Shown: positions 36,430 through 54,965 of the stretch, one piece after another
How the letters are laid out: each line of letters starts with the position of its first letter
Position numbering within the stretch: position 1 is the stretch's first letter
From: an uncultured bacterium
GTDB lineage: Bacteria > Zixibacteria > MSB-5A5 > UBA10806
Assembly (NCBI GenBank): GCA_965541585.1
Contig: CBEUCH010000001.1
Location: 320,001 to 384,000, forward strand
DNA: 64,000 nucleotides
Direction: 5' to 3'
Notes under the pieces: generated by a model
Database searches by the model: none
What the model saw: only the letters and a program-made list of their open reading frames with translations
What the model was told of the DNA's origin: nothing
Position numbers and translations under genes: made by a program

Positions 36430-36435
36430 AACCGT

Positions 36436-37263
36436 TCAGCCTCCAATAGATACCTGGTAACCGTGCGACTCCAGCATTTTTCCGGCCTGACGAACCTCCT
36501 CTGTTGGCATAGTCTGCCAGCGGCGACGAGGATGCCCCATCTCAAAACGCTCCATTTTATCCTCCCCCAGCTTATTATAGGGGAGAAGGCTTATACGATG
36601 AACATTTGGAAGGTTTGAAAGAAATAATGCAATAGCCTCAAGGTTGTCCCTGGTGTCGGTGATGTCGGGAATCAGCGGGACACGCACAATTACTTTGTCA
36701 GCTCGTTCGGTCAGACGGGCCAGGTTGGAGAGTATTCGCCGGTTCGATACCCCAACATATCTCTTGTGATCTGTTTTATCAATAAGCTTGAGATCATACA
36801 AAAACAGATCGACAAGATCATATATCTGCTCGAAATCCTCCCAATCAGCATACCCCGATGTATCCACAGCGGTATGGATGCCCAGATGATGACAGCCATC
36901 CAACAAGGCTTTTAGGAATTCCACCTGCATCAACGGTTCCCCGCCGGAGATGGTCACGCCACCGCCCGACTGATCGTAGAAAATCCGGTCTTTGACGATC
37001 TCTCCGACCAATTCCTCGACCGTCACGGTGCAGCCGATTGTCGTGTTCTTCGTCCGAGAATCAGCATGAGCTCCGCGCCAGAAGCGAACCTGCTTTGATT
37101 CCGGTTCGGGATTACGGCTCTCGGGATTGTGGCACCACCAGCAGTCAAGCGGACAGCCTTTGAAGAAAACGGTTGTACGGATACCGGGGCCGTCATGGAT
37201 GGCGAATTTCTTGATGTCGAAAATGATTCCTGTCTTTGCCATGCGGCTCTCCATAATAACCAA
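36436..37263 (-). CDS. Glycyl-radical enzyme activating protein (radical SAM)
   Basis: HDGPGIRTTVFFKGCPLDCWWCHNPES, GGVTISGGEP. Confidence 0.93.
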   Translation of the reverse strand: MVIMESRMAKTGIIFDIKKFAIHDGPGIRTTVFFKGCPLDCWWCHNPESRNPEPESKQVRFWRGAHADSRTKNTTIGCTVTVEELVGEIVKDRIFYDQSGGGVTISGGEPLMQVEFLKALLDGCHHLGIHTAVDTSGYADWEDFEQIYDLVDLFLYDLKLIDKTDHKRYVGVSNRRILSNLARLTERADKVIVRVPLIPDITDTRDNLEAIALFLSNLPNVHRISLLPYNKLGEDKMERFEMGHPRRRWQTMPTEEVRQAGKMLESHGYQVSIGG

Positions 37264-37726
37264 CTGGATGCGACCCGCCTGTTAAAGGCGCTAATCTGAA
37301 TATACGCTTTTAGCCGGGAAGAATCAACTTGTCAGTCGGGGCGGCCGGTGATTCTTAGCCCGGTAAGATTGGATGGTCTATGCATCCTTGCCGGGGAGAT
37401 CGCAGGAGCAAGCCTCCAATGATGATAAAAACCATGACTCCGCAAAATACCGCAATAAGAACTGAGCCGGATCGCAGACGTATACCTTTTAAGGCCATAG
37501 CTGTAATAAGAGTCGCCGCCAATGGCATCATCTCACAGGCAGGCGAGACGCCACAAAGCATGCTGTGCCATAGGACATTTATGGGCGCATGACATACGCA
37601 GTGTGGAAGGAAGCGACAACGCACACTTCCATAAGACGACTTTCGCGTCATTCTACAACAGGTTTTCAATAGAAGTAAGAGGTTTTTGGGATATGCTTAA
37701 AAAATCAATGCGGGGAAATCGAATTT

Positions 37727-38209
37727 TTATACAAACGATTTCAATATCTCCCTCTGCAACCCGACCAATTCCGAATTCGCCTCGCTGATTTCATCGATCT
37801 TCTGCTGGAGCTTCTTGAGGAGATTTTGCCTTTCCATGCCGTTACGAAGGATAATCAGGAGATCATCGTTATCCCACGGTTTTTCGAGGTATTGAAACAG
37901 GCCCACTTCGTTGATGGCCTTGATTGCGTTTTCCTTATCGGCGTAACCGGTGAGAATTATGCGTGGGACGTCCGGTCGTATCTCCCTGACTTTAGCCAGG
38001 AAGCTGATACCGTCCATTTCCGGCATAAGATAGTCGGAAATTACGATATCAATATCGTTTTTCTTTATGAATTCAAGCGCCGCTTCGGCGGATGTGAAAG
38101 TTTCGATTTTGAGACTCGTCTCGAGATTCAGAAATGACCTTAAGCTGGTCAGAACCATTTCCTCGTCATCGACCAGCACAATTGTTGAATTCGATTGAAC
38201 GACTGACAC
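37727..38209 (-). CDS. Response regulator (receiver plus coiled coil, no DNA-binding domain)
   Basis: LVDDE, ISDYLMPEMDG, LTGYAD, KPW. Confidence 0.92.
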   Translation of the reverse strand: MSVVQSNSTIVLVDDEEMVLTSLRSFLNLETSLKIETFTSAEAALEFIKKNDIDIVISDYLMPEMDGISFLAKVREIRPDVPRIILTGYADKENAIKAINEVGLFQYLEKPWDNDDLLIILRNGMERQNLLKKLQQKIDEISEANSELVGLQREILKSFV

Positions 38210-38370
38210 TTTTCTCTCCTGTTTTAAATCTACTATCCCTCAGGCAAGTTGCAATGCCTGGAAAATAACCGGGACTGCAGACGCCTGGCTTTTTCTACGG
38301 CGACAATGATCATGCTCTCCGGGCATGGTTCCCGTCGTTTCCGAACGCCCGGATTGTATACGGAACCACT

Positions 38371-38820
38371 CTAAGAACTGTTTCGATCTACCGGTCTTGA
38401 TCCCACTCTCTCCAGAAGACTTCTCAAGCGTTTGACCAGCGTTTTCATAACTCCTTGCGTGATTCGGACGTTATCTCCCAGCAGGTCAATGAAATCTTCT
38501 TTCTGGATTCGCAGTAGCTGACTATCCTCCATAGCCGTTGCCGTAACGACCCTCGGGTCATCATCGAATAATGCCCACGTTCCAAAAATGTCTTTGTGGG
38601 TGCCGATCATAACATCGGAACCGTCTCGAATCAGCCTGATCCTGCCATCAATGATCATATACATACAATCCGATATGTCTCCTTCCTTAAAGATTACATT
38701 GCCCTTTTCAAATTCTATTTCCTCGGTAATGGCGGCGATTTGAGCCAGGTCTTCGGTCGATGTGAATCCGAATATATCAACATCCTGCAGAAACAACACT
38801 TTTTCTATCGTGGTCAGCAT
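38371..38820 (-). CDS. Stand-alone cyclic nucleotide-binding domain protein
   Basis: EKVLFLQDVDIF, IFKEGD...MYMIIDG, FGTWALFDDDPRVVTA. Confidence 0.88.
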   Translation of the reverse strand: MLTTIEKVLFLQDVDIFGFTSTEDLAQIAAITEEIEFEKGNVIFKEGDISDCMYMIIDGRIRLIRDGSDVMIGTHKDIFGTWALFDDDPRVVTATAMEDSQLLRIQKEDFIDLLGDNVRITQGVMKTLVKRLRSLLERVGSRPVDRNSS

Positions 38821-38893
38821 TGAATCAGACTATTCCGAAATTCGGTCTCGGGATTGCTATCTATCCAATTTCCTGGTTTTGAAGTCATTTTCA

Positions 38894-41749
38894 TTAATCT
38901 GCCAGATTGAGCTTAATTGCAGCATATCTGGCAGTCTCGGCGATAACCCGGTCTGCGGCATTGCCCAGTTCACGGAGGGTCCCGGCGAAACGCCTGTTTT
39001 CCTGCTCAGCGATAAGATACAATGTGCATACGATAAGCCAGCGGACATTGCTCTTCAGAAGCATATAGAGCCCTTCGTCAGTTGATTTTAGGCTGAAGCC
39101 CCAGAGGCGCTCGGTATGTTTGAGCAATGACCGGATCAAAACAGTTTCCACAATCGGGATTATATATTTTTTTAGGTCGGAATCAAGAATATTATCGAGA
39201 AATTCTACGGCGTCGGCCCTGAGGCCGGGCTTTTCGCTGGTTATCCCCAGATACGCATTATAGATATCCCGGGAATAGTAGTTAAGGCTCAAGAGACGAA
39301 ACATCCTCTCCATGCTCCGTGCGAGGCTTTCATGCAGCGCTCTGGTGATGAGGCGTCTGGCCTGTTTGCCGCTGCGCTCGCCGCCAATCCGCGTCGGAAT
39401 CAGGCGATGGGCACGGCGGTCGAATCTGTAGAGAACGGCATTCAGTTTGTAGTAATTTTCGGCCTCCGCCAGAATACTCCTTTCGATAAGCTGAGAATCC
39501 AGCTTCAACATCGGGTAGTGTTCCCTTAGCTTGTTCAGACCCCTTATGGTTTCATAGCGAAGAGTCAAATCCTTGTGCGTTAAATTCTCATACAAGGTAT
39601 TGACCGCCCTTTTTGAGCCAATAAGGGCCAGGACCTTCGGTATCCTGGTTCTTACCCGCATGTTTTCGTCCGGATCATTGTAGCGTTCCATCAAAGGATC
39701 GATGACTTTATCGCCGTATTCAGCCAGGGATTCGCGAACATCTATGGCCACTGCACGAGTACCGAGGTGGGATATCAGAATCGGAATGAACTCTTCTGAT
39801 CGAGTTTCGCCGGCGCTTATCACGGCCGCCTTCAGGATTTCCGTGGACTCATCGCCCAGCAATCTTATCAGAGTAGCATTCAACTTCGGAATTTTGACCA
39901 TCCCCATAATTTTTGCAATATTTAACTTCAAAAGCCTGCTCTGTTTGTCGGAAGGTCCTGACCATTCGATTCGGTCGACCAGTTCTTTAATCAATCTTTC
40001 CAGTTCGATTATGTTGCCAAACGGTTTGCCTTCTTTTACCGCCAGGGCGGCGCAGATCAGGGCTGATGTCTTGACTTCGATGCTGGATTGAGACAGAAAT
40101 TCCCGAAAAGTTGACTCGGGGTCATCTGAATGCATGCAGATATAGCTTATCGCCTCTATCCTGACATCCTGGCTACCATCCGCAATGAGCGATCTGGCCT
40201 CTGTGGTGAAATCCTCGGTTTCATAATGAGAGATCATCCCGAGAACCCGGGCCTTGATTTCTGCTGACGGGTGTTGGAGCAGTCTTTTCAGATGCGGCAG
40301 CAATAAGTCATTTCTTGTGTCTTCGAAAAGATTTAAGACATACAGGATCTGCCTTTCGTTAACGCTGTCCAGCACCCTCAACAGACTCTTTACTGTTGAG
40401 GAGTCGGTCCCGCTCAACGACAGTTCATCGATGTCTATCGTTCGTTTCTCAATGGCACGGCGAAATGAATTGACGTATTCCTTTTTCATTTTCATTATAA
40501 TGAATATCCAGAAGCAGATCAGTGCAATAATGAAAAGACTCACGTACCTAATTGGAAGATTTATGCCGGTTATCAGGGCAATTAATAACAGGCCTCCCAA
40601 ACCCATGGCCAGACTATCTATGAAAACATCGACGATACTCTTTGCCTGATTTTTCACCAGCGCCGGGACCGGAATTGAAAGCAATTCCATGCCTGCTTTA
40701 TTCACTGATTGCTTGAGGCTACCCTCGGTGACTTTGATAAATACTGCCGACCAGAGAGCCGGGCTGAAAAGACTACCCAGGGCTCCTAAGAAAACGCCGG
40801 CCGGCAAAAAGAAGAGGGCCCGGGCAGTGCCCATCGATTTGAGAATTCTGCCGGTCAAAAGTAATTGGATGATAAGAGCCAATATGCTCAGATTCGAGAG
40901 CCAGAAACCGAAAAAGGCGGTGAGTTGATCCTGATCGGGAATCTCGCTTGAGGCTAATGCGCTGAATTGGAAATCAACCAGGCTGGCCACGATTACACCG
41001 ACGCCCACCATTGCGGCGGTCAAAGCAAGATGCCTCGATCTGGTAAATAGCCTTATGGGATTGCCAGTTTCAAACGATTGCTTCATTCGCCTTTGAGCCT
41101 GAATCCTCTCCCGAAAACTATGTTTTCCGCCACTTTGCCAGATAACTGACATTAATATGAGACTGGATATCATAAAACCGATGGCGAAAAATAAGAGATT
41201 CGAAGTCTCGAGAAGAGGGGCTAAATAGCTGGTAAGATACCCACCGAAGATACCGCCCGAGATCGCTCCGGCGCCTATCAGGCCAAATAGCCTTTTTGCT
41301 TCACGGGCGTTAAATACATAATTTGCCAGAAGCCAGAATTGGGTTGTGGATATGACTCCGAAGATCGAAACCCATATATAGAACAGATAAAGAAACCAGG
41401 CTGCCGTCATATTGAGATATAAGAAATACCAGATGACCAGGAGATTAAAGACAACGATTAGCAGGGTGGCCGAAATCAGGTAATTGAGGCGAACTTTTCT
41501 GGAAAGTCGCCAGTATAGCGATACTACAATTCCTGATGCGATAGATACCATGATGAAAGCATATGGAAGCTGTTTTACGCCAAGATAAGTAAGAAAAAGG
41601 GAATTGCGAACCGGCTTTAAAATCATCAACGACGCGATAACAAAGAAAATATAGGCAAACATCAGGGAGACCCTGAAACCCTCGCCCTCTCGAATGCCAA
41701 ACAATTTTTCGAAAAGTGTCTTCATAATGACTGGATTGGCAAGATACAA
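38894..41749 (-). CDS. NTT/Npt (ATP/ADP translocase family) MFS transporter fused to HEAT repeats
   Basis: LKPVRNSLFL, FNAREAKRLFGLIGAGAISGGIFG, QAKSIVDVF, about 12 TM, then about 500 aa of HEAT-like helical repeats; start may be ATG 41725. Confidence 0.88.
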   Translation of the reverse strand: MYLANPVIMKTLFEKLFGIREGEGFRVSLMFAYIFFVIASLMILKPVRNSLFLTYLGVKQLPYAFIMVSIASGIVVSLYWRLSRKVRLNYLISATLLIVVFNLLVIWYFLYLNMTAAWFLYLFYIWVSIFGVISTTQFWLLANYVFNAREAKRLFGLIGAGAISGGIFGGYLTSYLAPLLETSNLLFFAIGFMISSLILMSVIWQSGGKHSFRERIQAQRRMKQSFETGNPIRLFTRSRHLALTAAMVGVGVIVASLVDFQFSALASSEIPDQDQLTAFFGFWLSNLSILALIIQLLLTGRILKSMGTARALFFLPAGVFLGALGSLFSPALWSAVFIKVTEGSLKQSVNKAGMELLSIPVPALVKNQAKSIVDVFIDSLAMGLGGLLLIALITGINLPIRYVSLFIIALICFWIFIIMKMKKEYVNSFRRAIEKRTIDIDELSLSGTDSSTVKSLLRVLDSVNERQILYVLNLFEDTRNDLLLPHLKRLLQHPSAEIKARVLGMISHYETEDFTTEARSLIADGSQDVRIEAISYICMHSDDPESTFREFLSQSSIEVKTSALICAALAVKEGKPFGNIIELERLIKELVDRIEWSGPSDKQSRLLKLNIAKIMGMVKIPKLNATLIRLLGDESTEILKAAVISAGETRSEEFIPILISHLGTRAVAIDVRESLAEYGDKVIDPLMERYNDPDENMRVRTRIPKVLALIGSKRAVNTLYENLTHKDLTLRYETIRGLNKLREHYPMLKLDSQLIERSILAEAENYYKLNAVLYRFDRRAHRLIPTRIGGERSGKQARRLITRALHESLARSMERMFRLLSLNYYSRDIYNAYLGITSEKPGLRADAVEFLDNILDSDLKKYIIPIVETVLIRSLLKHTERLWGFSLKSTDEGLYMLLKSNVRWLIVCTLYLIAEQENRRFAGTLRELGNAADRVIAETARYAAIKLNLAD

Positions 41750-41814
41750 GAATGAGCGCTAATAATAAAGATGGAAATCGCCGGATAAAACGTTCGGATC
41801 GGAATGCCAGTCCT

Positions 41815-43143
41815 TTATTCTATTGGCCTTTCGGTCGTTTTTGTCCGGAATTGATTTCCTGCGTAACGAACCGCAATAATCCAGATTAGCACGACAGCGG
41901 CTGTTCCCAGTGACAGCCAGCGGATACTGGAGAATTCGGTAAAAATCGACGTGATCGCCAGGCTCACCCCGACGGCGATAACCTTGGCAAACCTCTGCAC
42001 AAACATATCTATGAAGGCCTTGGCCTTATACTTCTCGTCGCGGCTGGTGGGAACATAAAGCGTTTCCTTGGCCGATTGATTTATGGAGTAGGAGAAGCCG
42101 TTGTCTGCAGTGTTCAAGAAGCTACCCATCCATAGAATGGGCATCGCCATAAAACCGGCAGAGCCGACCAGGATTGCTACCGGCAGAATCATTAAGGCCG
42201 TTTTTACCCCAAATCTGGTCATTATGAAGCTTGTGAGGAAAAGCTGCACCAGCAGCGAGACCCAATTTGTAATCGAGAAAACGGTTGAGAATTGTTTCCC
42301 AATGGCAGGGCCGTCCAGATAATGTTCGATGGTGGCGGTGAACTGAAAATCCATCATAGTGGAGACGATCTCATATAAGCCCACGATGGCGACTATGGAG
42401 AGCAAATACCGGGAGTTAAAAACCAACCTGGCGCCCTCGATAGCGGGATTGCCTGCCTGTTTCTTAGCATCATCTTTCGGTTTTGGGTGCTCCGGAGGAG
42501 GGTTCTTTTTTACAAGGCTGCCCGCAATAGCGGCAATGGCAGTTATCAACAAGGCGAAACCAACACAAATCCATAACCAGTATGCCAGGGAAACCTGCTC
42601 GATCCAGATCCTGACAAAAGTGCTGCCGAATACGCCGCCGGTTACACCTCCCAGGCCTACCAGTCCGTAAAGACGCCTGGCTGATTCAGGGGTGACGCTG
42701 TCATTCAAGAACGCAAAAAACGTACCCACCATCAGGGTGCTGAAAAGATCGCCAAATAGATAGAACGACCATACAGTTATGTCGCCGGGGTTATTCGCTG
42801 CCAATAATATATAGGCGAAATATCCGAAAATGAAGAATCCTGAAAAAATAAATGTTAGTTGCTGCCTGCGGAACCTGCGGGCCAGGTAAGTGAATACTGC
42901 CACTGCAAAGAAGGCGACGACCATGTTGAGCACCTTTGCCAGGAGCTCAGCCTGCGAACCTCTCAGGTGCCACGATAACAGGTCGAAACCGGTTTGATCG
43001 TAGAATTGGATGAAGAGAGATTTTTTAATCGGCTTGAGAATCCAGAAGCTGGTAATTACCAGGAAGAAATAAGAGAACATCAGAAGTGATAAAGGCAGTT
43101 CCTCTCGCCTGATGTTCATTATTGCTCTCAGCGGATTTGCCAT
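41815..43143 (-). CDS. NTT/Npt (ATP/ADP translocase family) transporter, stand-alone
   Basis: LKPIKKSLF, ARRLYGLVGLGG, YSINQSAKETLYVP...KYKAKAFIDMFVQR. Confidence 0.88.
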   Translation of the reverse strand: MANPLRAIMNIRREELPLSLLMFSYFFLVITSFWILKPIKKSLFIQFYDQTGFDLLSWHLRGSQAELLAKVLNMVVAFFAVAVFTYLARRFRRQQLTFIFSGFFIFGYFAYILLAANNPGDITVWSFYLFGDLFSTLMVGTFFAFLNDSVTPESARRLYGLVGLGGVTGGVFGSTFVRIWIEQVSLAYWLWICVGFALLITAIAAIAGSLVKKNPPPEHPKPKDDAKKQAGNPAIEGARLVFNSRYLLSIVAIVGLYEIVSTMMDFQFTATIEHYLDGPAIGKQFSTVFSITNWVSLLVQLFLTSFIMTRFGVKTALMILPVAILVGSAGFMAMPILWMGSFLNTADNGFSYSINQSAKETLYVPTSRDEKYKAKAFIDMFVQRFAKVIAVGVSLAITSIFTEFSSIRWLSLGTAAVVLIWIIAVRYAGNQFRTKTTERPIE

Positions 43144-43249
43144 TATTGGCCTCGCAAACTGCTGAATTCTGTCTGAATTTGTTTAAAAAGACAGGGCATA
43201 TCGATAATCCGAAAAGAAATTATAGCATATTCCGTCAGGGCTTTCACAA

Positions 43250-44509
43250 TTATCTGTCGATAATCCGGAATTCATCGATCAACGGATCAGCCAATATTGA
43301 ATCGCCGGTTGCCTCGAATATCTTTACTGAAAGAACATCTTCATAGATATTTACCAGACTGTAATGATATTCTTGCAGCTGCTTTAGCTGTCTGACGTTT
43401 AAACCCTTAGCCTCGAAATCCTGTGCATATGAATTCAGGGCTTCGGAATCCGCTATCGGCATCAATGGAGCACCGCCTCCGCCGCCGACAATGAAATGAA
43501 TTTCTTGGCCTGGTGTTGCGGCGGAGCTATCGGCATACAGGACGTTGTGCTGGTAGAAATGATCGTGCCCTGAAAAAACCAGACGGACGCCATATTCTTC
43601 GAAGAGGTCTATTAATTTTCCGCGCTTGTTCAGCAGGTCTCTGCCATTGGATTTCTGATGCCAATCGTTATGATGTCTTCCAAAAGAGATGGGCGGCTGG
43701 TGTATGGCGACTATCTTAAAGGGCACGTTGCGGGATGAAAGTTGCTTTTCCAACCACGATGGTTTGTCATCATCGGGATCGGAGACGAACCATTTTTTGA
43801 AAAGCTCATCCTGCAGGTCATCATCGATATGACCCTTCTGGTCGAGGATGAAGTTGGCATCGACTACGAATAGCGCCCCGTCGGGGAAATCGATCACATA
43901 AAATCGAGGATATTGGAATATTGCCTGATAGTTTTTTAAGCCGAAGGTTGTGTCGTTAGCCCTTTCATGATTGCCGATTGCCGGGACGAAAGGGATCTCG
44001 TTCAGCAGGGGATGCTCAACCTTATTCATGTTCAAAAAACGGACCCAGTGCTCAGGTCGCCTGCCATCGTGAGCACAGATATCTCCGGTATTTAGAATAA
44101 AATCGACCTTGTTGCTCGTAGCGGCATGGTAAATAGCATCACGTACCATACGTTGCTCGTTAGCGGCATAATCAGGTTTGTGCCTGAACCAGTTAATCCC
44201 GCCAATGACGCCATTACCAAGCCAGTAGAGCTCGTAGAAAGGGAAGATTAGCATTTTCCAGGTTGCCCAATTATCTTTCCGGATAAATCTTTCGTAAGCG
44301 CGCCAGCCGGCCTGGTTGTCACTGTATACGAGAAACGTGGGATTTTCCCGGAGGGGCTCGTCGGCCAACAGTTTCGGTACCCGATAAAAGCTCTCGGGAT
44401 ATTTTTCAGAGATAAGTCCCACACGGGCGCAGTTGAAACTCAACATAAAAGACAGCAACACTATAAAGATAGTGATTCGAGAAGGAATATTGTGCTTTTG
44501 GCTTATCAC
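43250..44509 (-). CDS. Exported (probable lipoprotein) calcineurin-like metallophosphoesterase
   Basis: SDNQ, TGD, GNHE, H(QPP), GHDHFY; signal peptide ending LSFNC. Confidence 0.88.
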   Translation of the reverse strand: MISQKHNIPSRITIFIVLLSFMLSFNCARVGLISEKYPESFYRVPKLLADEPLRENPTFLVYSDNQAGWRAYERFIRKDNWATWKMLIFPFYELYWLGNGVIGGINWFRHKPDYAANEQRMVRDAIYHAATSNKVDFILNTGDICAHDGRRPEHWVRFLNMNKVEHPLLNEIPFVPAIGNHERANDTTFGLKNYQAIFQYPRFYVIDFPDGALFVVDANFILDQKGHIDDDLQDELFKKWFVSDPDDDKPSWLEKQLSSRNVPFKIVAIHQPPISFGRHHNDWHQKSNGRDLLNKRGKLIDLFEEYGVRLVFSGHDHFYQHNVLYADSSAATPGQEIHFIVGGGGGAPLMPIADSEALNSYAQDFEAKGLNVRQLKQLQEYHYSLVNIYEDVLSVKIFEATGDSILADPLIDEFRIIDR

Positions 44510-44519
44510 CTATTGAAGC

Positions 44520-46238
44520 TCATTCCTGGCGTCTCAGGCCTATTAGAGTGTATTCGCCCGAGATTATATCATACTGAAGGTAGACCTTTACCCATCTGCT
44601 CCATTTTCCGTTCCCGTTCCGCTCGACCCTCAGGGCGAATTCCAGCTGATAGTTCTCGTCAGTGGGAAGGTCACCAGGTATCTCAATAGACGTTGAATTT
44701 CCAAGATCTTTATCTTTTCTGAATATTTCTCCATTGATTCTCAGATCATAACGGTACCTGGCCAGGTTTTTTGATTCGAGATTTCTATCAACGGCGAGAT
44801 CGACGAAACTGAGCTTCTGCGCGCCTTCCGGATCTTTATCCAGCTCGAAATAGTCAAGCGGATTAACTTTAGAAAACCAGTGGCGTCCGATAATATCCCT
44901 GCGTTGCTTCAAAGTCTCCAGCAGATAAGCCTCTGCCTCGGGATCGCTGTATTTCCCCTGCCTGGCGACGGTTTCAAGTTGCTCATCGGTAAACGACGTG
45001 ACAAGCTTTGCGCCCCAGTAACCGTCGAGATCAGTCATCAGGTCGAATGCTGGATTCGGTATATTGCTCTTGAACTTGCCTGGTTCGAAGAAATCCGATT
45101 TATAGCGACCGATTGAAGTGAATTGAAAATCGGTGTCTTTTTCCCATCCTTCCACGTTTAAGCCCAGGCTGAGAGTATTTTCCATAATATCCCTGGGATC
45201 GAACTGGTTCACGAATCCTGCCTCCGGTGAAAATGGACTATGAGCGGCGCTTCCCAGAGTCGAACCGAAATCGATGAGAAAATGCCTGACATAGCTTTTG
45301 CCATTCTCAGTTACGTAGGAATCGAGGGAGTTCCCGTCTTTGGTATCGGTGTGCTTGAGCCAGGCGCTCATCACCTTCAAGCCGCGCAATTCCCTGCGAT
45401 GCTGGTGTGGTATGAGATCATTCGGATCATCTTCTCTGAAGCCCTGGTATCTGAACGGCCCGATTGGTGTACCGGGGACGTATTTGCTGGCCAGGGCACG
45501 TATGCGGCCGTCCGGAAGAATTTCGATCTTTTTCAAAATCCTTTCCAGATCCTCCCCGGTCATAAAAGCCTTATGGCCCTTCTCATCTATGAATTTAACA
45601 TCCCCTTCCAGTCTCAGAATATCCGGATGAAAATAGACAAGGTAGTTTTCAGGCGTGTTATATCCGGCGGCATAGAACAGCTTGGTCGAGATGACCTCGG
45701 CGCCGGTCGCGAGTTCGGAATATCCTTTCGGGTCGAATTTTATCAAATACATTTCGCCCTTGGTATCCCTTATGGTGAACCCGGGTGTTACTCCCTCCAG
45801 CTTGGCCCGTATGATTGTCCAGACACCGTTGACTTCGGGGCCGCTTCCTTCGTTGGGCCCTCCGGCAATATCCTCCAGGTTTAGACGTTTTATTGCATTT
45901 CTATTCGTGAACCAGCTGGAATTGTCAACCTCATCAAACGAATTAAGGTTTAAAGCCTGTTTCGGCCGTCCCGCCAGATGTCTTAGCTGACGGGAGAAAT
46001 CCAGAGATTCTCTTACCTGCTGGAACGCAACCTTGTCTATAACATCGTATATAAGAGGGATTTTTCTCGATTCGGGCTGGCGAGGAACGTGTTTGGTGTC
46101 ATCGGGTATCGCGGGCGAGGGAACAAATAGATTCCGGCCGGAGCAGCCGGAGAAAATACCGAAAGCAACCAGCACCAAAATCGATGCAGTGATAGGAGAC
46201 GAGAATATGTGGTGAGATTTTAAATCCGTCTTAGCCAT
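44520..46238 (-). CDS. Lipoprotein with atypical kinase-like fold (HipA/PI3-PI4K/CotH-like)
   Basis: Lipobox FSGC; EGVTPG loop, YLIKFD (catalytic Lys), AEVIS (alphaC Glu), HTDTKDGN catalytic loop, IDFG. Confidence 0.75.
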   Translation of the reverse strand: MAKTDLKSHHIFSSPITASILVLVAFGIFSGCSGRNLFVPSPAIPDDTKHVPRQPESRKIPLIYDVIDKVAFQQVRESLDFSRQLRHLAGRPKQALNLNSFDEVDNSSWFTNRNAIKRLNLEDIAGGPNEGSGPEVNGVWTIIRAKLEGVTPGFTIRDTKGEMYLIKFDPKGYSELATGAEVISTKLFYAAGYNTPENYLVYFHPDILRLEGDVKFIDEKGHKAFMTGEDLERILKKIEILPDGRIRALASKYVPGTPIGPFRYQGFREDDPNDLIPHQHRRELRGLKVMSAWLKHTDTKDGNSLDSYVTENGKSYVRHFLIDFGSTLGSAAHSPFSPEAGFVNQFDPRDIMENTLSLGLNVEGWEKDTDFQFTSIGRYKSDFFEPGKFKSNIPNPAFDLMTDLDGYWGAKLVTSFTDEQLETVARQGKYSDPEAEAYLLETLKQRRDIIGRHWFSKVNPLDYFELDKDPEGAQKLSFVDLAVDRNLESKNLARYRYDLRINGEIFRKDKDLGNSTSIEIPGDLPTDENYQLEFALRVERNGNGKWSRWVKVYLQYDIISGEYTLIGLRRQE

Positions 46239-46256
46239 CGATTCAGTCTATCATTC

Positions 46257-47537
46257 TTAGTTAAGGTCAAGGTGGATACGGACAAGGTCGCGACTCTTGC
46301 CGGCCTGTAATGTTACCAGGTTGCCGTCCCGCTTCCAGATACGAATTCCGCCCCCGAACGTAACTTCGAAGTCATCGCCGGAAATATGGTCGAATATGTC
46401 GGGCGCGACCTGACCGGCATCAACAAACACAAAAGCGTCCAGATTCCGGGGCATTATGGGGTAACGATACTCTACGGAGCCGATCATGCTGTCGCGATCC
46501 CGGAATCGTCCCCGTTTTAATCCTCGAATCGTTTCCGTTCTTCCGATTTCACTCATGTGATAAAACGGGATTTCTTTGCCGGATATCGGCTCTGATTTCC
46601 GGGCGGCAAAACGCACCACGAGATACCGGCCATAGAATAGATGGATGTAACGAGCGATGTCCGCTGTGGCTGCAAAAAAGCCGTACCGGTCGCCCCCGGT
46701 CTGGCGAAAGGCTTCTCCGGAGAACTCAATTTCCCAACCACCGGTGGGTTTCCCGGGGTGATTTCTGGAATCGTAATGAATCGAAAGCCCTGCGCCATAT
46801 AGCTCGACGCCGGTCTCCAATCCCGGCAATGAGCTGCCGAATTGGACGGTTGTGGATGGAGTACTTGAGTCCTTTCCCTTCAAAATGCTGTTTCGTTCAT
46901 AGAAAATAGAAATATCCGCTGCCGCTTTTCCCCCAAATCTCCTTCCGAGGGAAAGTCCCGCCCTCACCTGCTCAAATGCAAAATTGGTTTCGTCATCTTT
47001 GCCGGTACTCATTCCGATTCCATAGAATGCCTCATCAGGCATAAGGGTATATTGAGTTGTCAGACCGGCCTCCAGGGCTCCGTCCGCAATATCAATTCTT
47101 CTCAAGCGAAACCTGTATCGTTGTCGCCATCTCAATCCTGCAGTTGCCGCCAGATCGAGTCTTGACTGATCGGAGATAAGACCCTTTTGATAATATTTCA
47201 ACCCGCCACCGGAACGGGATGCGTATTTTGGTACGAGCCCCCTGCTGCCGTCATCGGCGACCATGAAATCTGCCAATTCCACAACAAACGGGACCTCAAA
47301 ACTGATTCCGGTGACGAGATCTACACCTTTGAGTACAATATGGAAAGGCAAATAGAGCAATTTCCCCGGCGCCGAGACGATTCTTTCCCAGGTCGAATGA
47401 CCTGGAAATCTATCAGGGTGGTTTTCTGTCGCATTTGTATCGGGCGGCGATTGTGGATCGACCCGTTCCGAGAGCGCCTGTTCGGAAACTATAGGAGCAA
47501 ACGCAAGCAGAAGAGAAATGGAGATTATTTTTTTCAC
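46257..47537 (-). CDS. Omp85/BamA-TamA family outer-membrane barrel without POTRA domains
   Basis: YDSRNH, TIRGLKRGRFRDR (Omp85 RGY/F-like lid loop), EYRYP, FVDAGQV, GGGIR; likely start GTG 47537 (MKKIISISLLLAF). Confidence 0.85.
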   Translation of the reverse strand: MKKIISISLLLAFAPIVSEQALSERVDPQSPPDTNATENHPDRFPGHSTWERIVSAPGKLLYLPFHIVLKGVDLVTGISFEVPFVVELADFMVADDGSRGLVPKYASRSGGGLKYYQKGLISDQSRLDLAATAGLRWRQRYRFRLRRIDIADGALEAGLTTQYTLMPDEAFYGIGMSTGKDDETNFAFEQVRAGLSLGRRFGGKAAADISIFYERNSILKGKDSSTPSTTVQFGSSLPGLETGVELYGAGLSIHYDSRNHPGKPTGGWEIEFSGEAFRQTGGDRYGFFAATADIARYIHLFYGRYLVVRFAARKSEPISGKEIPFYHMSEIGRTETIRGLKRGRFRDRDSMIGSVEYRYPIMPRNLDAFVFVDAGQVAPDIFDHISGDDFEVTFGGGIRIWKRDGNLVTLQAGKSRDLVRIHLDLN

Positions 47538-47623
47538 TTTCTTAAGATCCTGTTTTCCTGAATTCTTCCAAAATGTAAATAAGCACGATGGCAACGCGAT
47601 CTGATTACGCTACCGTGCTCGCT

Positions 47624-47716
47624 TTATTGAATTGTAAAACCAATATAGTCGAGTCCTGGTTCCTTCAGACATCTCAGATGCCCGAACTTCTCGCGGCTGT
47701 GCTGAATAGAGTCCAT
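47624..47716 (-). CDS. Putative 30-aa leader peptide (MDSIQHSREKFGHLRCLKEPGLDYIGFTIQ)
   Basis: AGGAG 7 nt before ATG 47716, directly after the promoter and followed by a hairpin at 47582-47619. Confidence 0.45.
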   Translation of the reverse strand: MDSIQHSREKFGHLRCLKEPGLDYIGFTIQ

Positions 47717-47744
47717 AAGCTGTCTCCTGCCTTTCAGGCGACAA

Positions 47745-47773
47745 ATTATATCTAAGTCGCTTCCAAAGGTCAA
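47745..47773 (-). promoter_or_regulatory. Sigma70 promoter of the Omp85-kinase-NTT operon
   Basis: TTGACC-N17-TATAAT on the minus strand. Confidence 0.75.
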
Positions 47774-47853
47774 TTTGGATTTCTGGCTTTATCTAAATGC
47801 AGATCAAACTATAATTCAGTTGATTATGAACACGGTTTCATTCCGGCAAGAGG

Positions 47854-48885
47854 CTAAAACTCGAAATGAATCGCGACGCCAATAGCATCTCCTTTTATCA
47901 TAGGAACAGTAACCAGGTTTGTCTTTCTATTTTCATGTAGCTTTATGACTGCGCTGGAAACAGCTATGCCGTAGATGGCGGCGATATAGACGTCGGATGG
48001 CCAGTGCGAATCCGATGTCACCCTCTGGAAAGCCACGGTTGTAGCGAGACCATAAAGAGTGAGCGTTGCCGGCCGGAATCTCAAGTGATGGGACAAAACA
48101 GTGGCCACCTGGAATATCGATGAGGCATGACCGGATGGAAACGACGTGCCCTTGTTGAACTCGAAGTTTCGCGGCCCCCTGCCATCGTGAGGGCGAGTCC
48201 GACCGACAACGATATTGGCCAGGTTTTTGACTCCACCCGCAATGAAATGAGATTCGAGGATTTGAGCCGATATTTCCATCAGAGGTCTGATTCTGAAAAC
48301 GTATCCGATTGCGAGGCCGCCAAAATAATACTTGTTGGTGTTACCCATCATGCCAATCGGTTCGAAAGTCTGGCCGATTCTTCTAAACGGCTTGTATAGT
48401 CTATCGTCCTGGTTGCGCTTTAGCCCGTCATAAATTTCCTGATCGTAGGCATAGAGTATTCCCGCTGTAGCCGTAAATGCTGTCAGCCAGTATGCGTCAC
48501 GCCGGCTTATCCTGGCGGGCGAGGAATAGATATGCCAGCTATCGGATAGATATATCTTTCCCATGTTGCCGAGATCCCGAAGCAAATGGCGTTTATTCTC
48601 GATTATCTGTTGCTCTTCCGCGCCGTTATCGTCAGAATATTGGCTGCTCATAAAGAGTAATTCCAGAGATCTCGTATATATGAACGGCGTCTCGGGGTAT
48701 ACACTGCTATATAGACGCGTAGGGAAAATCATTGAGTTTCTCCTGGCTTTCGATTCCTCAGCGATTGATTGCGAAATGCAAGATGTTGGCATTACAAGCA
48801 AGATTAATAAGACGCAGAACTTCTTATAATTCATATGATCACTGTATTTATCAATGAATATTGGCGTTAAACGATTACTTGTCAT
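47854..48885 (-). CDS. PAP2 family phosphatase, exported/membrane
   Basis: K.....GRTRP, SFPSGH, QRVTSDSHWPSDV; start may be ATG 48834. Confidence 0.9.
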   Translation of the reverse strand: MTSNRLTPIFIDKYSDHMNYKKFCVLLILLVMPTSCISQSIAEESKARRNSMIFPTRLYSSVYPETPFIYTRSLELLFMSSQYSDDNGAEEQQIIENKRHLLRDLGNMGKIYLSDSWHIYSSPARISRRDAYWLTAFTATAGILYAYDQEIYDGLKRNQDDRLYKPFRRIGQTFEPIGMMGNTNKYYFGGLAIGYVFRIRPLMEISAQILESHFIAGGVKNLANIVVGRTRPHDGRGPRNFEFNKGTSFPSGHASSIFQVATVLSHHLRFRPATLTLYGLATTVAFQRVTSDSHWPSDVYIAAIYGIAVSSAVIKLHENRKTNLVTVPMIKGDAIGVAIHFEF

Positions 48886-51800
48886 CTTCTACGGAATTTT
48901 CGCCCAGATCCATCGGCAAAATAATCGTAAATGTGGTTCCCCTTCCGACCTCGCTTTCCACCTTGATTTCGCCTCTGTGATCCTGGATTATCTGATAGCA
49001 AATGGAAAGCCCCAGCCCCGTGCCCACGCCGACGCCTTTGGTGGTGAAACCCGGATCGAAAACCCGCTTTAAATGTTCTGCAGATATGCCCGTACCATTG
49101 TCCTGAATTTCGATGAATACACTCTTGCCTTCTCTGTGGGTGGCTATTTTAATCTCGCCTTTATCCTTTATTGCCTGACTGGCGTTTACCAGCAGGTTTA
49201 GAAACACTTGATTGAGCGGTCCGGGATAGCAGGGAATAGGCGGGATATCGCCATAGTTCTTGATCACCACGGCCTTATGTTTTAATTCGTGGTGAATGAT
49301 GGTGAGAGTGTCTTCAAGCCCCTCGTGGATATCGGTTTTCTTCAGTTCGGCTTCGTCCAGTCGGGCAAAGCTTCTCAAGCGACGGACTATATTGGTTACT
49401 CTATCGGTGCCGGATTCGATGACCTTGTTGGCATCATCGATGATTCTGAGAATAGACTGCAGCTCCTGGTTTTGCTCGTACTGTTCCGATAAATTCGATC
49501 TGAGGATACCTTTGAGTTTTCGAGTAGAGCGGACGAGTGTATCGTGCATGCTGTTGACCGCACCAATTGGGGTATTGATTTCGTGTGCGATACCGGCTAC
49601 CAGCAGGCCCAGTGATGCCATTTTTTCGGATTGAATAAGCTGAATCTGGGTCTCTTTTAGGTGCTTATTGGCTTGAGCGAGATCTTCCAGGACCTTCATT
49701 TTTTCGGTGATATCATGGGCAACGCCGATGTAGGAAACCACATTTCCGTTCTCGTCTTTAAGCGGTGATGCACTTGACGTATGCCACCTCCAGCTTCCAT
49801 CCTTGTGCTTTACGCGGTATTCTATACCGCTCATGGTTTCACCAGCCATAACCTTCTCGAAGTAATCCATACAGGCCTGCAAGTCGTCCGGATGGACGAA
49901 CAGTGCAAAGGACGATCCCTGAACCTCTGAAACATCGTGCCCCAGTATGGAGGTCCAGTTGGGTGGGACATAAGAAAACACTCCCTCGGGTGTGAGAGAA
50001 TAGATGATATCGTTAGCTTTTTCCACCAGATTTCTGAACCGCTCCTCGCTGGCCTGAAGCGCTTCTTCAGCCCTTTTGCGTTTAGAGATGTCGCGTCCCA
50101 TTCCCGCAAAACAGATCAATTCTCCGGAATCGTCATAAATAGGAAAGAGGGACAGATCGATATCGATATTATCGCCCTTCTTATTGTGAATTTTTATCTC
50201 GCCTCGAAATGAATCCTTTTTGGCTATCGCCTCATCAACGGCCGCGAGACTTTCATCGCAAATGAACTCGGCGAGGGATTTGCCATATAATTCGTCATCG
50301 GAAAATCCGCTATATTGCCTGTGTGCGGGATTTCGCTCTATTATTTTGCCATCGGGATCTATAAGGGTGATGCCATCGCTTGTGTGCATGAAAATCTCTT
50401 TGTAGAGTTTGAGCTTTTCTTCAGCCTCCCTTTGCTCTGTGACATCTATGCCACTTGCGATTATATATTCTACATCGCCATCGTCATTTGTAAGGGCGGT
50501 ATTGGACCAGGCGATGAGCCTTCTGGAACCGTCTTTGGTCAGCCAATAATTTTCATGGGTATTTGGGAAATGGCCGGCCTTGAGACTCTTAAATATATTC
50601 CTTACCTGCTCCAACTCTTCGGCGATTAAGAATAAATCCCAGACATGTTTGCCCCTTACCTCGTCGAATCTATAGCCCGTTGTATCCTGGCAAGCCTGAT
50701 TGAACTGAACGATGCATCCATCCGAATCGAGAACCACCACCAGAGCGCCTGCCGTATCCAGTACGGCGCTGACGAAATTGCGCTCCCAGCGGAGCGCTTC
50801 TTCCATCTGTTTTCTTTGATGAATATCATGGATGCCCCCGATGATAGATGGTTCTCCGCCCATTTCAGCTATTACCAGCGAGAATATGGCCCAGAATACA
50901 GTACCATCCAGCTTCTTCAATCGGACCTCAAAGTTTTTAAGATAGCCATCCCTTTGCAGTCTCTCGATCACGGTCTTTCTATCATCAGGATCATAATAGA
51001 AATCCGGTGACTTCCTGCCGATCAAATCTTTCGCGGTGGTCCCGATCAGCTGTCCCAGATGCTCGTTTGCGTACATTATCTCCCCATCGCCGAGCCGGGT
51101 AATGATCAATGGTACGGGTGAAGCTTCAATTATGGTATGTATCTGTTCTTCTGCCTTTTTCAGCCCCGTTACATCGGAGAATATCCATAACCGCCCCAGT
51201 TCCTGGTTGTTTTTATCCAGCACCGGCATGGAAAAAAGCGATATGATTCTGGATTTCGGTTTGGTCAGCAGGAACGATCTTTCTAATATCTTTTTAATCT
51301 CCATGTCATCATCGGATGAATCAGGATTTTCAGTCAACCTCTTACATAATCTTTCAAACCTATCCTGGTCTTTAACCAATCCTTTGATGCGATTAAGGAA
51401 GTCATTGATGTTGGTGTTAAATATCTTCTCTGTTTCGATGCCGAAATAATCCCTGGTGTAGCGGTTTCCGGCAGTAATTTTGCCCTCATTGTTAGCCATG
51501 AGTATAACGTTGGGGGATGAATCGAGGATGGCCTGCAATTCGTCTCTGCCTTTTGAAAGATCTTCGAGAAGCCTGCCCATCTGTAGATTTTTTTCTTCGA
51601 GTTGTTCCTGGATTGCCAGAAGATCGATATTGGCGCGGGCCAGTTCTATTGTGTTGCTTTCCAACTGCCTGGTTCTATCCGTAAGTTTTACGTTGGCTTC
51701 CTTTAAGGACTTCGTCCTCTCGATCACTTTTCTATCGAGCGATTGATATACCCTGATGTTATCCAGCGCCATTCCCACCATGTTGGCAAAAGTTTCAAAG

Positions 51801-53077
51801 CGGGTTTTATCCTGGGCGTCCATTTCACGCCTGTGATGCTGCATATTTCCTATGATAAGGCCGATCGGTTTATTTTCTGCCCTGATGGGACTTATGATGA
51901 CCGACTTGGTGCGGATGATTTTCTTCCCGCCCCGCGGCCATAAAGGATCGGTATTAAGATCTGGAATAAAGATCGTTTCGTTTTTTTCGATGCTTTTCCT
52001 GAAGTGCGGGGGAGGATTGGTAGAAAAAGATTTCGAATTCTGGAGAAAGTTGGCAAGAATCCGCGGGGGATCCTTCTCAAAACAGTAGGAGCGAAGGGTA
52101 AATGTTCCGTTCTCGAACAGGACGAGGAAAGCCCGGTCGAAATCCAGTGTATGCGTGAGAAATTCCGGAACCTCATTGAGAAGTTCCTCCTCGTCGAATA
52201 TCCCTGAGAGCCGGCCGGATAACTCGCTTAACGCCTCGAGCTGACGATTGGAGTACTCAAGCCGTGAGGTGCGCTCCTCGACCATCTTTTCCAGCCCGAG
52301 CGAATATTCCTTCAGTCTGGCTTCGAGTCTCTTACGCTCGGTGACGTCGCGCGCGATACCGTCATTTCTGATGACCTGTCCGTCTTCAAAGACCAGGCGG
52401 CGTCTTATCTCGAAATCCTTCACTTCGCCTGACTTTGAAATCATCCGGAATTCAAGCGCTCTTATCTTATCATCCTTGTTGTTGATCGATTTTTTCAATT
52501 TTAGTATTACCGAATCCATGTCCCCAGGGTGGATGAAATCAAATACGGACTTGCCGAGGACTTCGCTCTCTTTGTACTCCAATATTTGCTCTGCAGCCGG
52601 GCTAACGCTCAAAAATACGCCGCCTGGATCGAGAGAATAGACAATATCCGGAACATTGTCCGAAATCATTTTCAGCATCGACTCCGATTGCCGGAGCCGT
52701 CTTTGCATCAGGGTGTTATCATAGGCCTGACGGATGGAGGTGTCTATCTCTCCAATATCTACCGGCTTCAATACAAAATTGAACGCCCCCTGGCTGATTG
52801 TCTTAACAGCTTTTGGAATCGTTCCATGGGCTGTTAGGATAATCACCGGTAATTCCGGGGCGATCTTTTTCGCACGTTTTAAAACGGTCAGTCCGCCCAT
52901 CACCGGCATGTTGAGATCGCAGAGGATTACATCGAACGCGCCCGTTTCCAGAAACTTAAGGCCGCTCTGACCCGATGCTGCAGGCCTGACTGAAAATCCT
53001 CTCGAGCGGAGCTGCTTGCTTAACTCCCGCCGCTGTTTTCCATCATCCTCTATGTACAATACTCTTATTCTATCCAT
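48875..53077 (-). CDS. Cytoplasmic hybrid sensor histidine kinase: REC-PAS-GAF-(PAS)x5-HisKA-HATPase
   Basis: N-terminal receiver (IEDD, CDLNMP), repeated PAS/PAC, AGIAHEINTP, NQVFLNLLVNA, DNGTG, FTTKGVGVGTGLGL. Confidence 0.93.
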   Translation of the reverse strand: MDRIRVLYIEDDGKQRRELSKQLRSRGFSVRPAASGQSGLKFLETGAFDVILCDLNMPVMGGLTVLKRAKKIAPELPVIILTAHGTIPKAVKTISQGAFNFVLKPVDIGEIDTSIRQAYDNTLMQRRLRQSESMLKMISDNVPDIVYSLDPGGVFLSVSPAAEQILEYKESEVLGKSVFDFIHPGDMDSVILKLKKSINNKDDKIRALEFRMISKSGEVKDFEIRRRLVFEDGQVIRNDGIARDVTERKRLEARLKEYSLGLEKMVEERTSRLEYSNRQLEALSELSGRLSGIFDEEELLNEVPEFLTHTLDFDRAFLVLFENGTFTLRSYCFEKDPPRILANFLQNSKSFSTNPPPHFRKSIEKNETIFIPDLNTDPLWPRGGKKIIRTKSVIISPIRAENKPIGLIIGNMQHHRREMDAQDKTRFETFANMVGMALDNIRVYQSLDRKVIERTKSLKEANVKLTDRTRQLESNTIELARANIDLLAIQEQLEEKNLQMGRLLEDLSKGRDELQAILDSSPNVILMANNEGKITAGNRYTRDYFGIETEKIFNTNINDFLNRIKGLVKDQDRFERLCKRLTENPDSSDDDMEIKKILERSFLLTKPKSRIISLFSMPVLDKNNQELGRLWIFSDVTGLKKAEEQIHTIIEASPVPLIITRLGDGEIMYANEHLGQLIGTTAKDLIGRKSPDFYYDPDDRKTVIERLQRDGYLKNFEVRLKKLDGTVFWAIFSLVIAEMGGEPSIIGGIHDIHQRKQMEEALRWERNFVSAVLDTAGALVVVLDSDGCIVQFNQACQDTTGYRFDEVRGKHVWDLFLIAEELEQVRNIFKSLKAGHFPNTHENYWLTKDGSRRLIAWSNTALTNDDGDVEYIIASGIDVTEQREAEEKLKLYKEIFMHTSDGITLIDPDGKIIERNPAHRQYSGFSDDELYGKSLAEFICDESLAAVDEAIAKKDSFRGEIKIHNKKGDNIDIDLSLFPIYDDSGELICFAGMGRDISKRKRAEEALQASEERFRNLVEKANDIIYSLTPEGVFSYVPPNWTSILGHDVSEVQGSSFALFVHPDDLQACMDYFEKVMAGETMSGIEYRVKHKDGSWRWHTSSASPLKDENGNVVSYIGVAHDITEKMKVLEDLAQANKHLKETQIQLIQSEKMASLGLLVAGIAHEINTPIGAVNSMHDTLVRSTRKLKGILRSNLSEQYEQNQELQSILRIIDDANKVIESGTDRVTNIVRRLRSFARLDEAELKKTDIHEGLEDTLTIIHHELKHKAVVIKNYGDIPPIPCYPGPLNQVFLNLLVNASQAIKDKGEIKIATHREGKSVFIEIQDNGTGISAEHLKRVFDPGFTTKGVGVGTGLGLSICYQIIQDHRGEIKVESEVGRGTTFTIILPMDLGENSVEDDK

Positions 53078-53369: not shown

Positions 53370-53882
53370 TTACGCCCCGCCACCGGGTGTGCGAAGGTTC
53401 AGCGTTTCTATGATCCAACAGGCTATCTCGGATCCTCTATCCGGATCAAAGTTGGTTATTTCGGGCAACACCTTTTGTGCCGATACCGTGGCAACCAGCA
53501 ATCGGTTTCCCTTATGGAGCGGTTTGGCTCCGGCGGCCACACATTCAATTATCTGGATATCCTTATTTGCAATTCCCTCCCAGAACACGATGTCTTTATC
53601 ACGAAACAGCGACTCCTCCAGTCGTTTCCGTGTATCCGGATCAGGCATTGATGAATGACAGACCCACTTATTCGGCGATATTATGATCGCCGTTTCACTT
53701 CCGGCTTTTCTGTATCTCCAGGAATCGGTTTCAGGTCGATCGAACTCATGGTCATGGGAGGTATGCTTAACAGTGGCGCTCCTGTATCCGAGGCGAGCAA
53801 ACTTCGCCGTTAAAAGCACAATGAGCTTGGTCTTACCGCTATTTTTCTGACCTGCGATACAAATGTGAGCCGGCATACTCAA
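53370..53882 (-). CDS. mobB: Molybdopterin-guanine dinucleotide biosynthesis protein B
   Basis: GQKNSGKT P-loop, VKHTSHDHEFDRPETDSWR. Confidence 0.88.
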   Translation of the reverse strand: MSMPAHICIAGQKNSGKTKLIVLLTAKFARLGYRSATVKHTSHDHEFDRPETDSWRYRKAGSETAIIISPNKWVCHSSMPDPDTRKRLEESLFRDKDIVFWEGIANKDIQIIECVAAGAKPLHKGNRLLVATVSAQKVLPEITNFDPDRGSEIACWIIETLNLRTPGGGA

Positions 53883-53945
53883 CCTCTTATATCTCCTCTC
53901 AATTCTTGCCAGTTGCCGTTGTCAATGCGGAATGAATTCCCTGAC

Positions 53946-54953: not shown

Positions 54954-54965
54954 AAATGTCCCGTT

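Follow-up and report, generated by a model that had tools for sequence, protein, structure and literature searches.

Carriers of the NTT family fused to HEAT repeats (NTT-HEAT), with an adjacent stand-alone gene for a cyclic nucleotide monophosphate (cNMP)-binding protein, have been described in free-living bacteria with no assigned function (Major, Embley and Williams 2017, PMC5381601). POTRA-less (noNterm) barrels of the Omp85 superfamily were reported to resemble the barrel of Metallo-Omp85, in which a PF00149 domain, there called a metalloprotease, is joined to the barrel (PMC4104836). The periplasm is regarded as having no dedicated ATP supply, and a 2020 review held the route of ATP across the inner membrane to be unexplained, with no ATP/ADP translocase homologue known in Gram-negative bacteria (PMC7432876). 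Here we report a gene module in a 64,000-nucleotide stretch of DNA from an uncultured bacterium of the Zixibacteria (GCA_965541585.1, contig CBEUCH010000001.1, positions 320,001 to 384,000 of the forward strand), hereafter the window. In it, a predicted kinase-fold lipoprotein is encoded together with its own Omp85 barrel, exported phosphatases, two NTT carriers and regulatory genes. We conclude that the module is a real, undescribed system of unproven mechanism whose individual parts have known relatives, and it suggests ATP-driven phosphorylation between the two membranes of some bacteria.

Gene organization of the locus

The genes of the module and its immediate upstream neighbours, in the direction of transcription, are as follows.

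48875..53077, minus strand: receiver-PAS-GAF-PAS histidine kinase gene (Pfam; recurs beside the module)
47854..48885, minus strand: exported PAP2-family phosphatase gene with a beta-signal-like C-terminus (recurrent accessory gene)
47745..47773, minus strand: candidate sigma-70-like promoter (11 of 12 consensus positions)
46257..47594, minus strand: POTRA-less (noNterm) Omp85 barrel gene, open reading frame (ORF) of 445 amino acids (aa) (PF01103)
44520..46238, minus strand: predicted kinase-fold lipoprotein gene, exported, 572 aa (fold model, conserved residues)
43250..44509, minus strand: metallophosphoesterase gene, purple-acid-phosphatase-like, exported, probable lipoprotein with a hydrophobic insert (PF00149)
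41815..43143, minus strand: single-domain NTT/TLC-family carrier gene (TLC, PF03219)
38894..41749, minus strand: NTT-HEAT fusion gene, probable start ATG at 41725 (TLC and HEAT_2)
38371..38820, minus strand: stand-alone cNMP-binding-domain protein gene (PF00027)
37727..38209, minus strand: stand-alone receiver domain gene with a C-terminal helix (conserved orthologue, 46-79% identity)

An earlier sequence-only reading of the window had proposed a unit of six co-oriented, closely spaced genes. The arrangement was confirmed: six minus-strand ORFs (38371-47594) follow one another from the barrel to the cNMP gene with gaps of 18, 10, 106, 65 and 73 bp. The unit itself proved too small, as the conserved receiver gene, 161 bp downstream of the cNMP-domain gene, belongs to it as a seventh member. 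The PAP2 and histidine kinase genes lie upstream of the barrel on the same strand. The probable start of the barrel is a GTG at 47537, where a signal-peptide-like stretch begins. A Pfam scan of the window proteins found Omp85 (PF01103, E 2e-16), PF00149 (8e-14) and, for the single NTT, PF03219 (5e-22), and assigned no family to the 572-aa protein.

The host genome (G000) is 3.5 Mb in size and 98% complete. It holds a single kinase copy, in this operon, and only two NTT genes, both inside the operon; the closest named homologues are from Zixibacteria. Since purM, pyrB and atpD are all present, the host does not look like an energy parasite, and energy parasitism was set aside.

Conservation of the module across genomes

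Three sets of kinase loci were compared, namely the best 80 of 525 GTDB matches, 20 Acidobacteriota loci and 19 loci of the window's own phylum, picked for long contigs; the sets share at least two loci, so counts pooled over 119 loci are slightly inflated. The barrel gene was found directly upstream of the kinase in 63 of 69 GTDB loci (the best 80 of 525 minus 11 with a short flank), 20 of 20 Acidobacteriota loci and 19 of 19 own-phylum loci. An NTT gene lay within the fetched flank in 41/80, 5/20 and 14/19 loci, respectively.

Genome-wide tallies gave the same association. An NTT was present in 46 of 51 kinase genomes of the own phylum versus 0 of 150 others (single-protein NTT query; one of the 51 is a weak fragment), in 24/29 versus 40/122 Acidobacteriota genomes, in 30/32 versus 9/82 genomes of a third phylum (sample centred on genome G361) and in 10/10 versus 28/91 Gemmatimonadota genomes. 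Cut-offs differed between these samples, each of which includes its kinase-bearing centre, and the tallies contain the unpublished genomes G258, G473 and G534 with one row each. In another 15 kinase genomes that were examined, an NTT was always encoded at some place. Within the families of the own phylum kinase and NTT are patchy, and they agree family by family; the carriers accompany the kinase even where the genes are chromosomally unlinked. Thus the kinase nearly implies an NTT, while an NTT does not imply the kinase.

All six genes occurred together in only 8 of the 80 GTDB loci, and NTT-HEAT followed by the cNMP-binding gene in 27. The proposed co-occurrence in other genomes holds across phyla, both by linkage and in the four phylum samples. 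As a fixed unit the six-gene set was upheld in part: the kinase-barrel pair is constant and the carriers track the kinase, but the full set is rare. The module core is barrel plus kinase, followed by the carriers and then by a replaceable phosphatase.

The barrel-kinase pair is tandemly duplicated in some loci (L028, L063, L073 and L077), and third-phylum genomes hold up to four kinase copies.

The kinase-fold lipoprotein

The kinase-like family is large, with 4245 matches in 8000 candidates and with 2833 clusters at 50% identity. Searching the window sequence against solved structures gave nothing below E 0.77, and none of the named Pfam kinase families (Fam20C, CotH, HipA) scored above its cut-off; the best, HipA_2, reached E 0.091 and 12.4 bits against a cut-off of 27, and was weak in 20 of 72 members. 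The structure model (predicted local distance difference test, pLDDT, 90.8) was matched best by CtkA (Z 13.8, root mean square deviation (rmsd) 3.9, 223 residues aligned), followed by Fam20 (Z 12.7, rmsd 4.0, 254 aligned), PI4KII-alpha (Z 12.5, rmsd 4.7, 243 aligned) and CotH (Z 12.3, rmsd 4.2, 233 aligned). The ranking from Fam20 down to CotH consists of ties, the aligned spans are 223-261 residues overall, and the matches are only about 10-13% identical (9-11% for Fam20 and CotH). Residues 457-560 match FN3 domains, indicating an FN3-like domain at the C-terminus.

Among 81 homologues the catalytic positions were kept in most: K167 in 74, E175 in 71, D298 in 77, N303 in 77 and D323 in 79. 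R282 and R285, in an arginine cluster that precedes the catalytic loop, were invariant in all 81. Cys32 was retained with a hydrophobic stretch in 61 of the 81, and a lipobox-like word was present in 48. The protein thus combines the fold of the atypical protein-kinase-like superfamily (Fam20/CotH/CtkA/HipA/PI4K2) with the catalytic K, E, D and N and the metal-binding D. The fold model and these residues predict a lipoprotein with a Fam20/CotH/CtkA/PI4K2-type kinase fold and an intact catalytic site, in agreement with the earlier claim of an exported, kinase-folded protein. Such a fold does not separate a protein substrate from a lipid or sugar. Amphipathic helices are found on both the kinase and the phosphoesterase and, together with the PAP2 partners, hint at a substrate near the membrane, perhaps a lipid.

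Longer forms of the family were also seen. One protein of 1151 aa has an unannotated C-terminal extension with no Pfam family on record, which is weak evidence either way on fusion. Long Acidobacteriota frames resembling kinase-barrel fusions were rejected as overlaps in another frame; in three of them an unannotated extension of about 430 aa is present. Several Acidobacteriota kinases (L098:8606-11908, L099:7695-10751 and L100:7979-11851; P0267) carry a C-terminal extension of 430-600 aa without a Pfam match.

The Omp85 barrel and predicted docking of the kinase

The barrel scored 60.7 bits for PF01103 (cut-off 24), Pfam listed neither POTRA nor TPS domains for it, and its nearest atlas clusters are Omp85 proteins of 401-454 aa. 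It reached 40.4 against 297 bits for the BamA model TIGR03303, and the POTRA domains of BamA and TpsB are absent. By its sequence we class it as a noNterm Omp85.

A model of the kinase-barrel complex scored 0.62, versus 0.00 for the best of three controls. Of the reference pairs, 116 of 157 solved ones and 2 of 215 mismatched ones attain this mark; these figures are only roughly valid for custom alignments. Runs agreed in at least 91% of contacts, and the partners had a pLDDT of at least 86. On the barrel, the predicted dock is made up of helices at the N-terminus and a pair of short turns, at residues 298-301 and 354-367 in the construct of 423 aa, which we take from the topology of BamA to lie in the periplasm. 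The model therefore supports docking of the kinase on the periplasmic face of the barrel, and the earlier suggestion of a surface translocon was not sustained. The pairwise identities among the kinases are correlated with those among the barrels (r 0.82, 81 pairs), which shared descent explains as well.

The NTT carriers

Both carriers passed the PF03219 cut-off of 21 bits (single NTT 79, NTT-HEAT 42.2), and the single NTT matched PDB 9j3j and 9j3n over its whole length by profile (E 1e-26 and 2e-31). Four charged residues, K155, E245, E385 and K527, matter in plant NTT1 (PMC3306366, PMC4256464). Mapped through alignments to the two structures, they correspond to K70, D132, D265 and K387 of the single NTT, with both glutamates replaced by aspartates. 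This K, D, D, K set was invariant in 19 of 19 members of the window's single-NTT subtype.

In one lineage (L032, L039, L119, L123) NTT-HEAT is split into two adjacent genes, one for about 525 aa and one for about 418 aa; these clusters repeatedly contain REC-SpoIIE and 7TMR-DISM histidine kinases as well.

The phosphatases

The profile of the phosphoesterase matched purple acid phosphatases best (E 6e-33), with no PPP among the 26 matches listed. Its Cys27 lies in a non-canonical lipobox, yet is kept in 14 close orthologues. Of the 119 kinase loci, 21 hold the phosphoesterase, 27 hold an exported PAP2, 4 have the two together and 44 have at least one of them; the window carries both, and PAP2 was present in 16 of the 19 own-phylum loci. 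The idea of the phosphoesterase as an eraser is weakened, since the enzyme resembles purple acid phosphatases, is present in 21 of 119 loci and is often replaced by PAP2.

The PAP2 neighbours (47854-48885 in the window and 26 related loci) mostly have a signal peptide and an alternating hydrophobic C-terminal strand, often with a final Phe. This C-terminus resembles an outer-membrane beta-signal and is too short for a full barrel; the PAP2 proteins might dock on the Omp85 barrel.

Regulatory genes

In CRP-type domains that bind cAMP or cGMP, the phosphate-binding cassette uses a Glu and an Arg. In the cNMP domain of the module T, V, A or M takes the place of the pocket glutamate in all 26 sequences and the arginine is kept in 23, so the window domain does not have the CRP-type cassette. 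Of the 41 loci that carry both NTT-HEAT and the cNMP domain, 31 have an orthologue of the receiver and 29 have histidine kinases; the corresponding counts for the 78 other loci are 0 and 12. The receiver and histidine kinases are steadier regulatory partners than the cNMP-type domain. A single gene for a class III cyclase was found in the host genome, remote from the operon. The missing pocket glutamate makes the proposed second-messenger gate of HEAT and cNMP domains uncertain.

A gene for an SdiA-regulated/phytase-like propeller follows the receiver or cNMP gene in some loci (L006:18295-19401, L021, L043, L283-L285), and the same family adjoins the fused form described next.

Metallo-Omp85, a fused counterpart

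Metagenomes were scanned with a conserved motif of the middle region of Metallo-Omp85. At least 120 matches were obtained, 80 of them with flanks. Among the matches listed, 38 proteins are of about 1200-1280 aa and 18 of 835-915 aa; Pfam finds PF00149 or Omp85 in the fusion examples tested. An 845-aa member was modelled with a pLDDT of 91.2. Its residues 25-360 matched PI4KII-alpha (Z 14.7, rmsd 5.0, 266 aligned), CotH (Z 14.1, rmsd 4.1, 239 aligned) and CtkA (Z 12.6), and its barrel part TamA/BamA (Z 25). The model thus places a predicted kinase-fold domain between PF00149 and the barrel of Metallo-Omp85, giving phosphatase, kinase fold and barrel in one chain; the word kinase is absent from PMC4104836. 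In the window the three parts are separate genes.

Compared by profile, the two kinase families gave a weak match (probability 20%, E 0.0011, 280 columns) in which the catalytic loops were out of register, and the case for their kinship is therefore based on the separate fold searches. All 11 Acidobacteriota genomes with the fused form had an NTT, as did 11 of the 26 such genomes from Gemmatimonadota and 5 of the 16 from the third phylum. One NTT-HEAT clade serves both kinase families, and three of five Gemmatimonadota loci, picked for adjacency, have the order NTT, fusion, NTT-HEAT.

Around the fusion, the 80 metagenome loci (L135-L214) encode an HD-PycTM protein (41 loci), an SdiA-regulated propeller (35), an unannotated protein of 790 aa that weakly matches GAF (32) and polyphosphate kinase 1 (14). 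The fusion, HD-PycTM, the 790-aa protein, the propeller and polyphosphate kinase 1 form a conserved phosphate-related cluster that is apparently undescribed. One fused protein (L147:8356-10893) has a beta-rich linker domain (model residues 362-478) between kinase and barrel, in the place of POTRA and barely covered by the fold search.

Proposed mechanism and alternative explanations

We propose a periplasmic kinase-phosphatase cycle on the inner side of the outer membrane, fed by exchange of ATP for ADP and phosphate, and put its probability at roughly 0.45. The kinase-fold lipoprotein, docked in the model beneath its own barrel, would move phosphate from ATP to a membrane-near acceptor, for which a lipid, a sugar or small molecule passing the barrel, and an envelope protein are candidates. 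An exported phosphatase, purple-acid type or PAP2, would strip the phosphate. The conserved residues and the co-occurrence suggest that the NTT would export cytoplasmic ATP for ADP and phosphate and so close the cycle, and gene linkage suggests that NTT-HEAT, the cNMP-type domain, the receiver and nearby histidine kinases would regulate or read the flux. Plant NTT1 exchanges ATP against ADP plus phosphate (PMC3306366); because phosphate is returned with ADP, a periplasmic kinase and phosphatase would supply exactly the return cargo of such a carrier. Here we infer ATP as the donor, the direction of the carriers and the substrate.

Several findings weigh against this cycle. Characterised NTTs mostly import ATP (PMC5381601), and both window carriers are far below the TIGR00769 cut-off (65.5 versus 387.2 bits for the single NTT; NTT-HEAT is not listed). 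A second single-NTT subtype (10 of 29) keeps only the third key position at the aligned columns. NTT-HEAT keeps one of the four, the acid equivalent to E385 (23 of 23 rows); in these rows the E245 position is never acidic and the K527 position is T in 12 and R in 6. NTT-HEAT was moreover the sole carrier found in five of five kinase genomes checked, four of them single-contig, and these genomes with the degenerate residues are the main weakness of the ATP-export reading. Twelve of 122 kinase genomes gave no NTT match. Related genomes are non-independent samples, and Fisher tests were not relied on for that reason. The fused form stands without an NTT in 15 of 26 Gemmatimonadota and 11 of 16 third-phylum genomes, and an NTT adjoins the fusion in only 2 of the 80 metagenome loci; since the fused family is often without an NTT, a barrel that bears a kinase-fold domain can in some cases do without this carrier.

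The alternative that survives best, though an unlikely one, is that nucleotides or phospho-metabolites from outside are captured or sensed: the barrel would admit them, the kinase use outside ATP or phosphorylate a substrate and so trap it, the phosphatase trim it and the carriers import the product, with NTT-HEAT as a transporter-like receptor for the two-component genes. The usual import by NTTs (PMC5381601) fits this, as do the degenerate carrier residues of NTT-HEAT with its tight linkage to cNMP domain, receiver and histidine kinases, the likeness of the phosphatase to small-molecule acid phosphatases, and a Na/Pi cotransporter with PhoU, a class B acid phosphatase and an SdiA-regulated propeller beside single loci. 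Phosphatases can scavenge without a kinase, yet it is the kinase-barrel pair that is fixed and the phosphatase that is optional (44/119), and the host makes its own nucleotides and ATP (purM, pyrB, atpD).

A different chemistry such as nucleotidylation, or a different cargo (NAD or a non-adenine nucleotide), would be in keeping with the low identity of the fold matches (about 10-13%), with the finding that NTT sequence does not reveal the substrate (PMC4256464) and with NAD- and purine-carrying NTTs outside the canonical clade (PMC5381601). It is made improbable by the retention of the lysine, glutamate, catalytic aspartate, asparagine and metal-binding aspartate of a normal kinase and, in the single NTT subtype, of the lysine tied to triphosphate binding (PMC3306366).

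Slightly more doubtful still is reverse use, in which the kinase fold would form periplasmic ATP from ADP and an outside donor, for example polyphosphate, for import by the NTT. Polyphosphate kinase 1 adjoins the fused family in the 14 metagenome loci noted above and the invariant arginine cluster before the catalytic loop could bind a polyanion, but the enzyme had no match in the 119 loci of the window kinase family or in the host genome, and co-located phosphatases would waste the donor. To our knowledge no enzyme of this kinase fold uses polyphosphate, which also counts against this idea.

Export or display of the kinase on the cell surface by the barrel (two-partner or type Vd style), with the carriers as co-regulated passengers, has the least to recommend it: the fixed barrel-then-kinase order, the secreted nature of the best fold match CtkA and the correlated identities (r 0.82, explained by shared descent too) favour it, against the lack of a POTRA or TPS domain, the lipoprotein cysteine of the kinase, docking of the folded kinase on periplasmic turns in the model, and carriers that follow the kinase even when unlinked.

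Beyond the proposed cycle in this locus, a wider view is possible and distinctly more tentative, namely a dedicated ATP export circuit in many free-living diderms, in which two ancient kinase families, either docked on Omp85 barrels or fused with them, would run an outer-membrane phosphorylation cycle with exported phosphatases. The cycle would power or gate traffic through the barrel and be read in the cytoplasm by NTT-HEAT, the cNMP-type domain and a two-component relay. On this wider view the module would be a bacterial counterpart of secretory-pathway kinases, and it would account for the NTTs of free-living bacteria as well as for Metallo-Omp85. The module links three puzzles, namely the ATP supply of the periplasm, the NTTs of free-living bacteria (PMC5381601) and the noNterm and Metallo-Omp85 proteins (PMC4104836), the latter two being without an assigned function.

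Promoter and neighbouring genes

The sigma-70-like site at 47773-47745 is the top of 23 matches within 36500-50000, and a strict sigma-70 pattern occurs three times in the window versus 0.07 expected from shuffled sequence. A single sigma-70 promoter for the operon had been proposed; the site is the best of its region and rare in shuffles, but is not conserved in three aligned relatives. Two more near-perfect, intergenic matches lie at 15442-15469 (minus strand) and 19884-19912 (plus strand).

Directly downstream of the module are genes for a glycyl-radical enzyme (PFL-like) and a radical-SAM activase (34069-37263), which were not seen beside it in other loci. The window further encodes two neighbouring exported proteins of 566 aa (26598-28298 and 28755-30455), which both carry a FlgD-Ig-like domain at the C-terminus and resemble a tandem duplication, a multi-haem cytochrome (31445-32728), and a molybdopterin oxidoreductase accompanied by genes apparently for cofactor synthesis and a chaperone (53370-59152).

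Comparison with known systems

No account of the module was found in the literature searched; most subscription papers and supplements lie outside that search, so an earlier mention is possible. Omp85 and BamA are absent from the text of a 2026 survey of kinase-like proteins (bioRxiv 10.64898/2026.09.18.752743), as is the word kinase from that of PMC11358297.

As in the operon of Major and colleagues (2017), the NTT-HEAT gene of the window has a cNMP-binding gene behind it; their main text names no kinase, barrel, phosphatase or receiver partner, which here form a conserved unit. A POTRA-less barrel is also the mark of the noNterm subfamily of Omp85 (Heinz and Lithgow 2014, PMC4104836), and in the Metallo subfamily a related barrel is fused to PF00149. 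The likeness to canonical NTTs (plant NTT1 and Chlamydia NTT1; PDB 9j3j and 9j3n) lies in the whole-length match and the four charges of the single NTT; the window carriers differ in their non-parasite host, in the two Glu to Asp replacements and in the loss of three of the four key charges from NTT-HEAT. Like TpsB/TpsA and the PlpD-type patatin-Omp85, the module sets a dedicated Omp85-superfamily barrel beside an enzyme or fused to it, but it has no POTRA or TPS domain, its lipoprotein enzyme is modelled in the periplasm, and inner-membrane carriers and a receiver are included.

Eukaryotic kinases of the secretory pathway are fed by lumenal ATP carriers. The window kinase resembles Fam20C/Fam20B and CotH in its predicted atypical kinase fold and predicted place outside the cytoplasm, and differs from them in being a probable lipoprotein of the bacterial periplasm modelled on a barrel, with 9-11% identity, no Pfam membership and carriers of the MFS-type NTT family.

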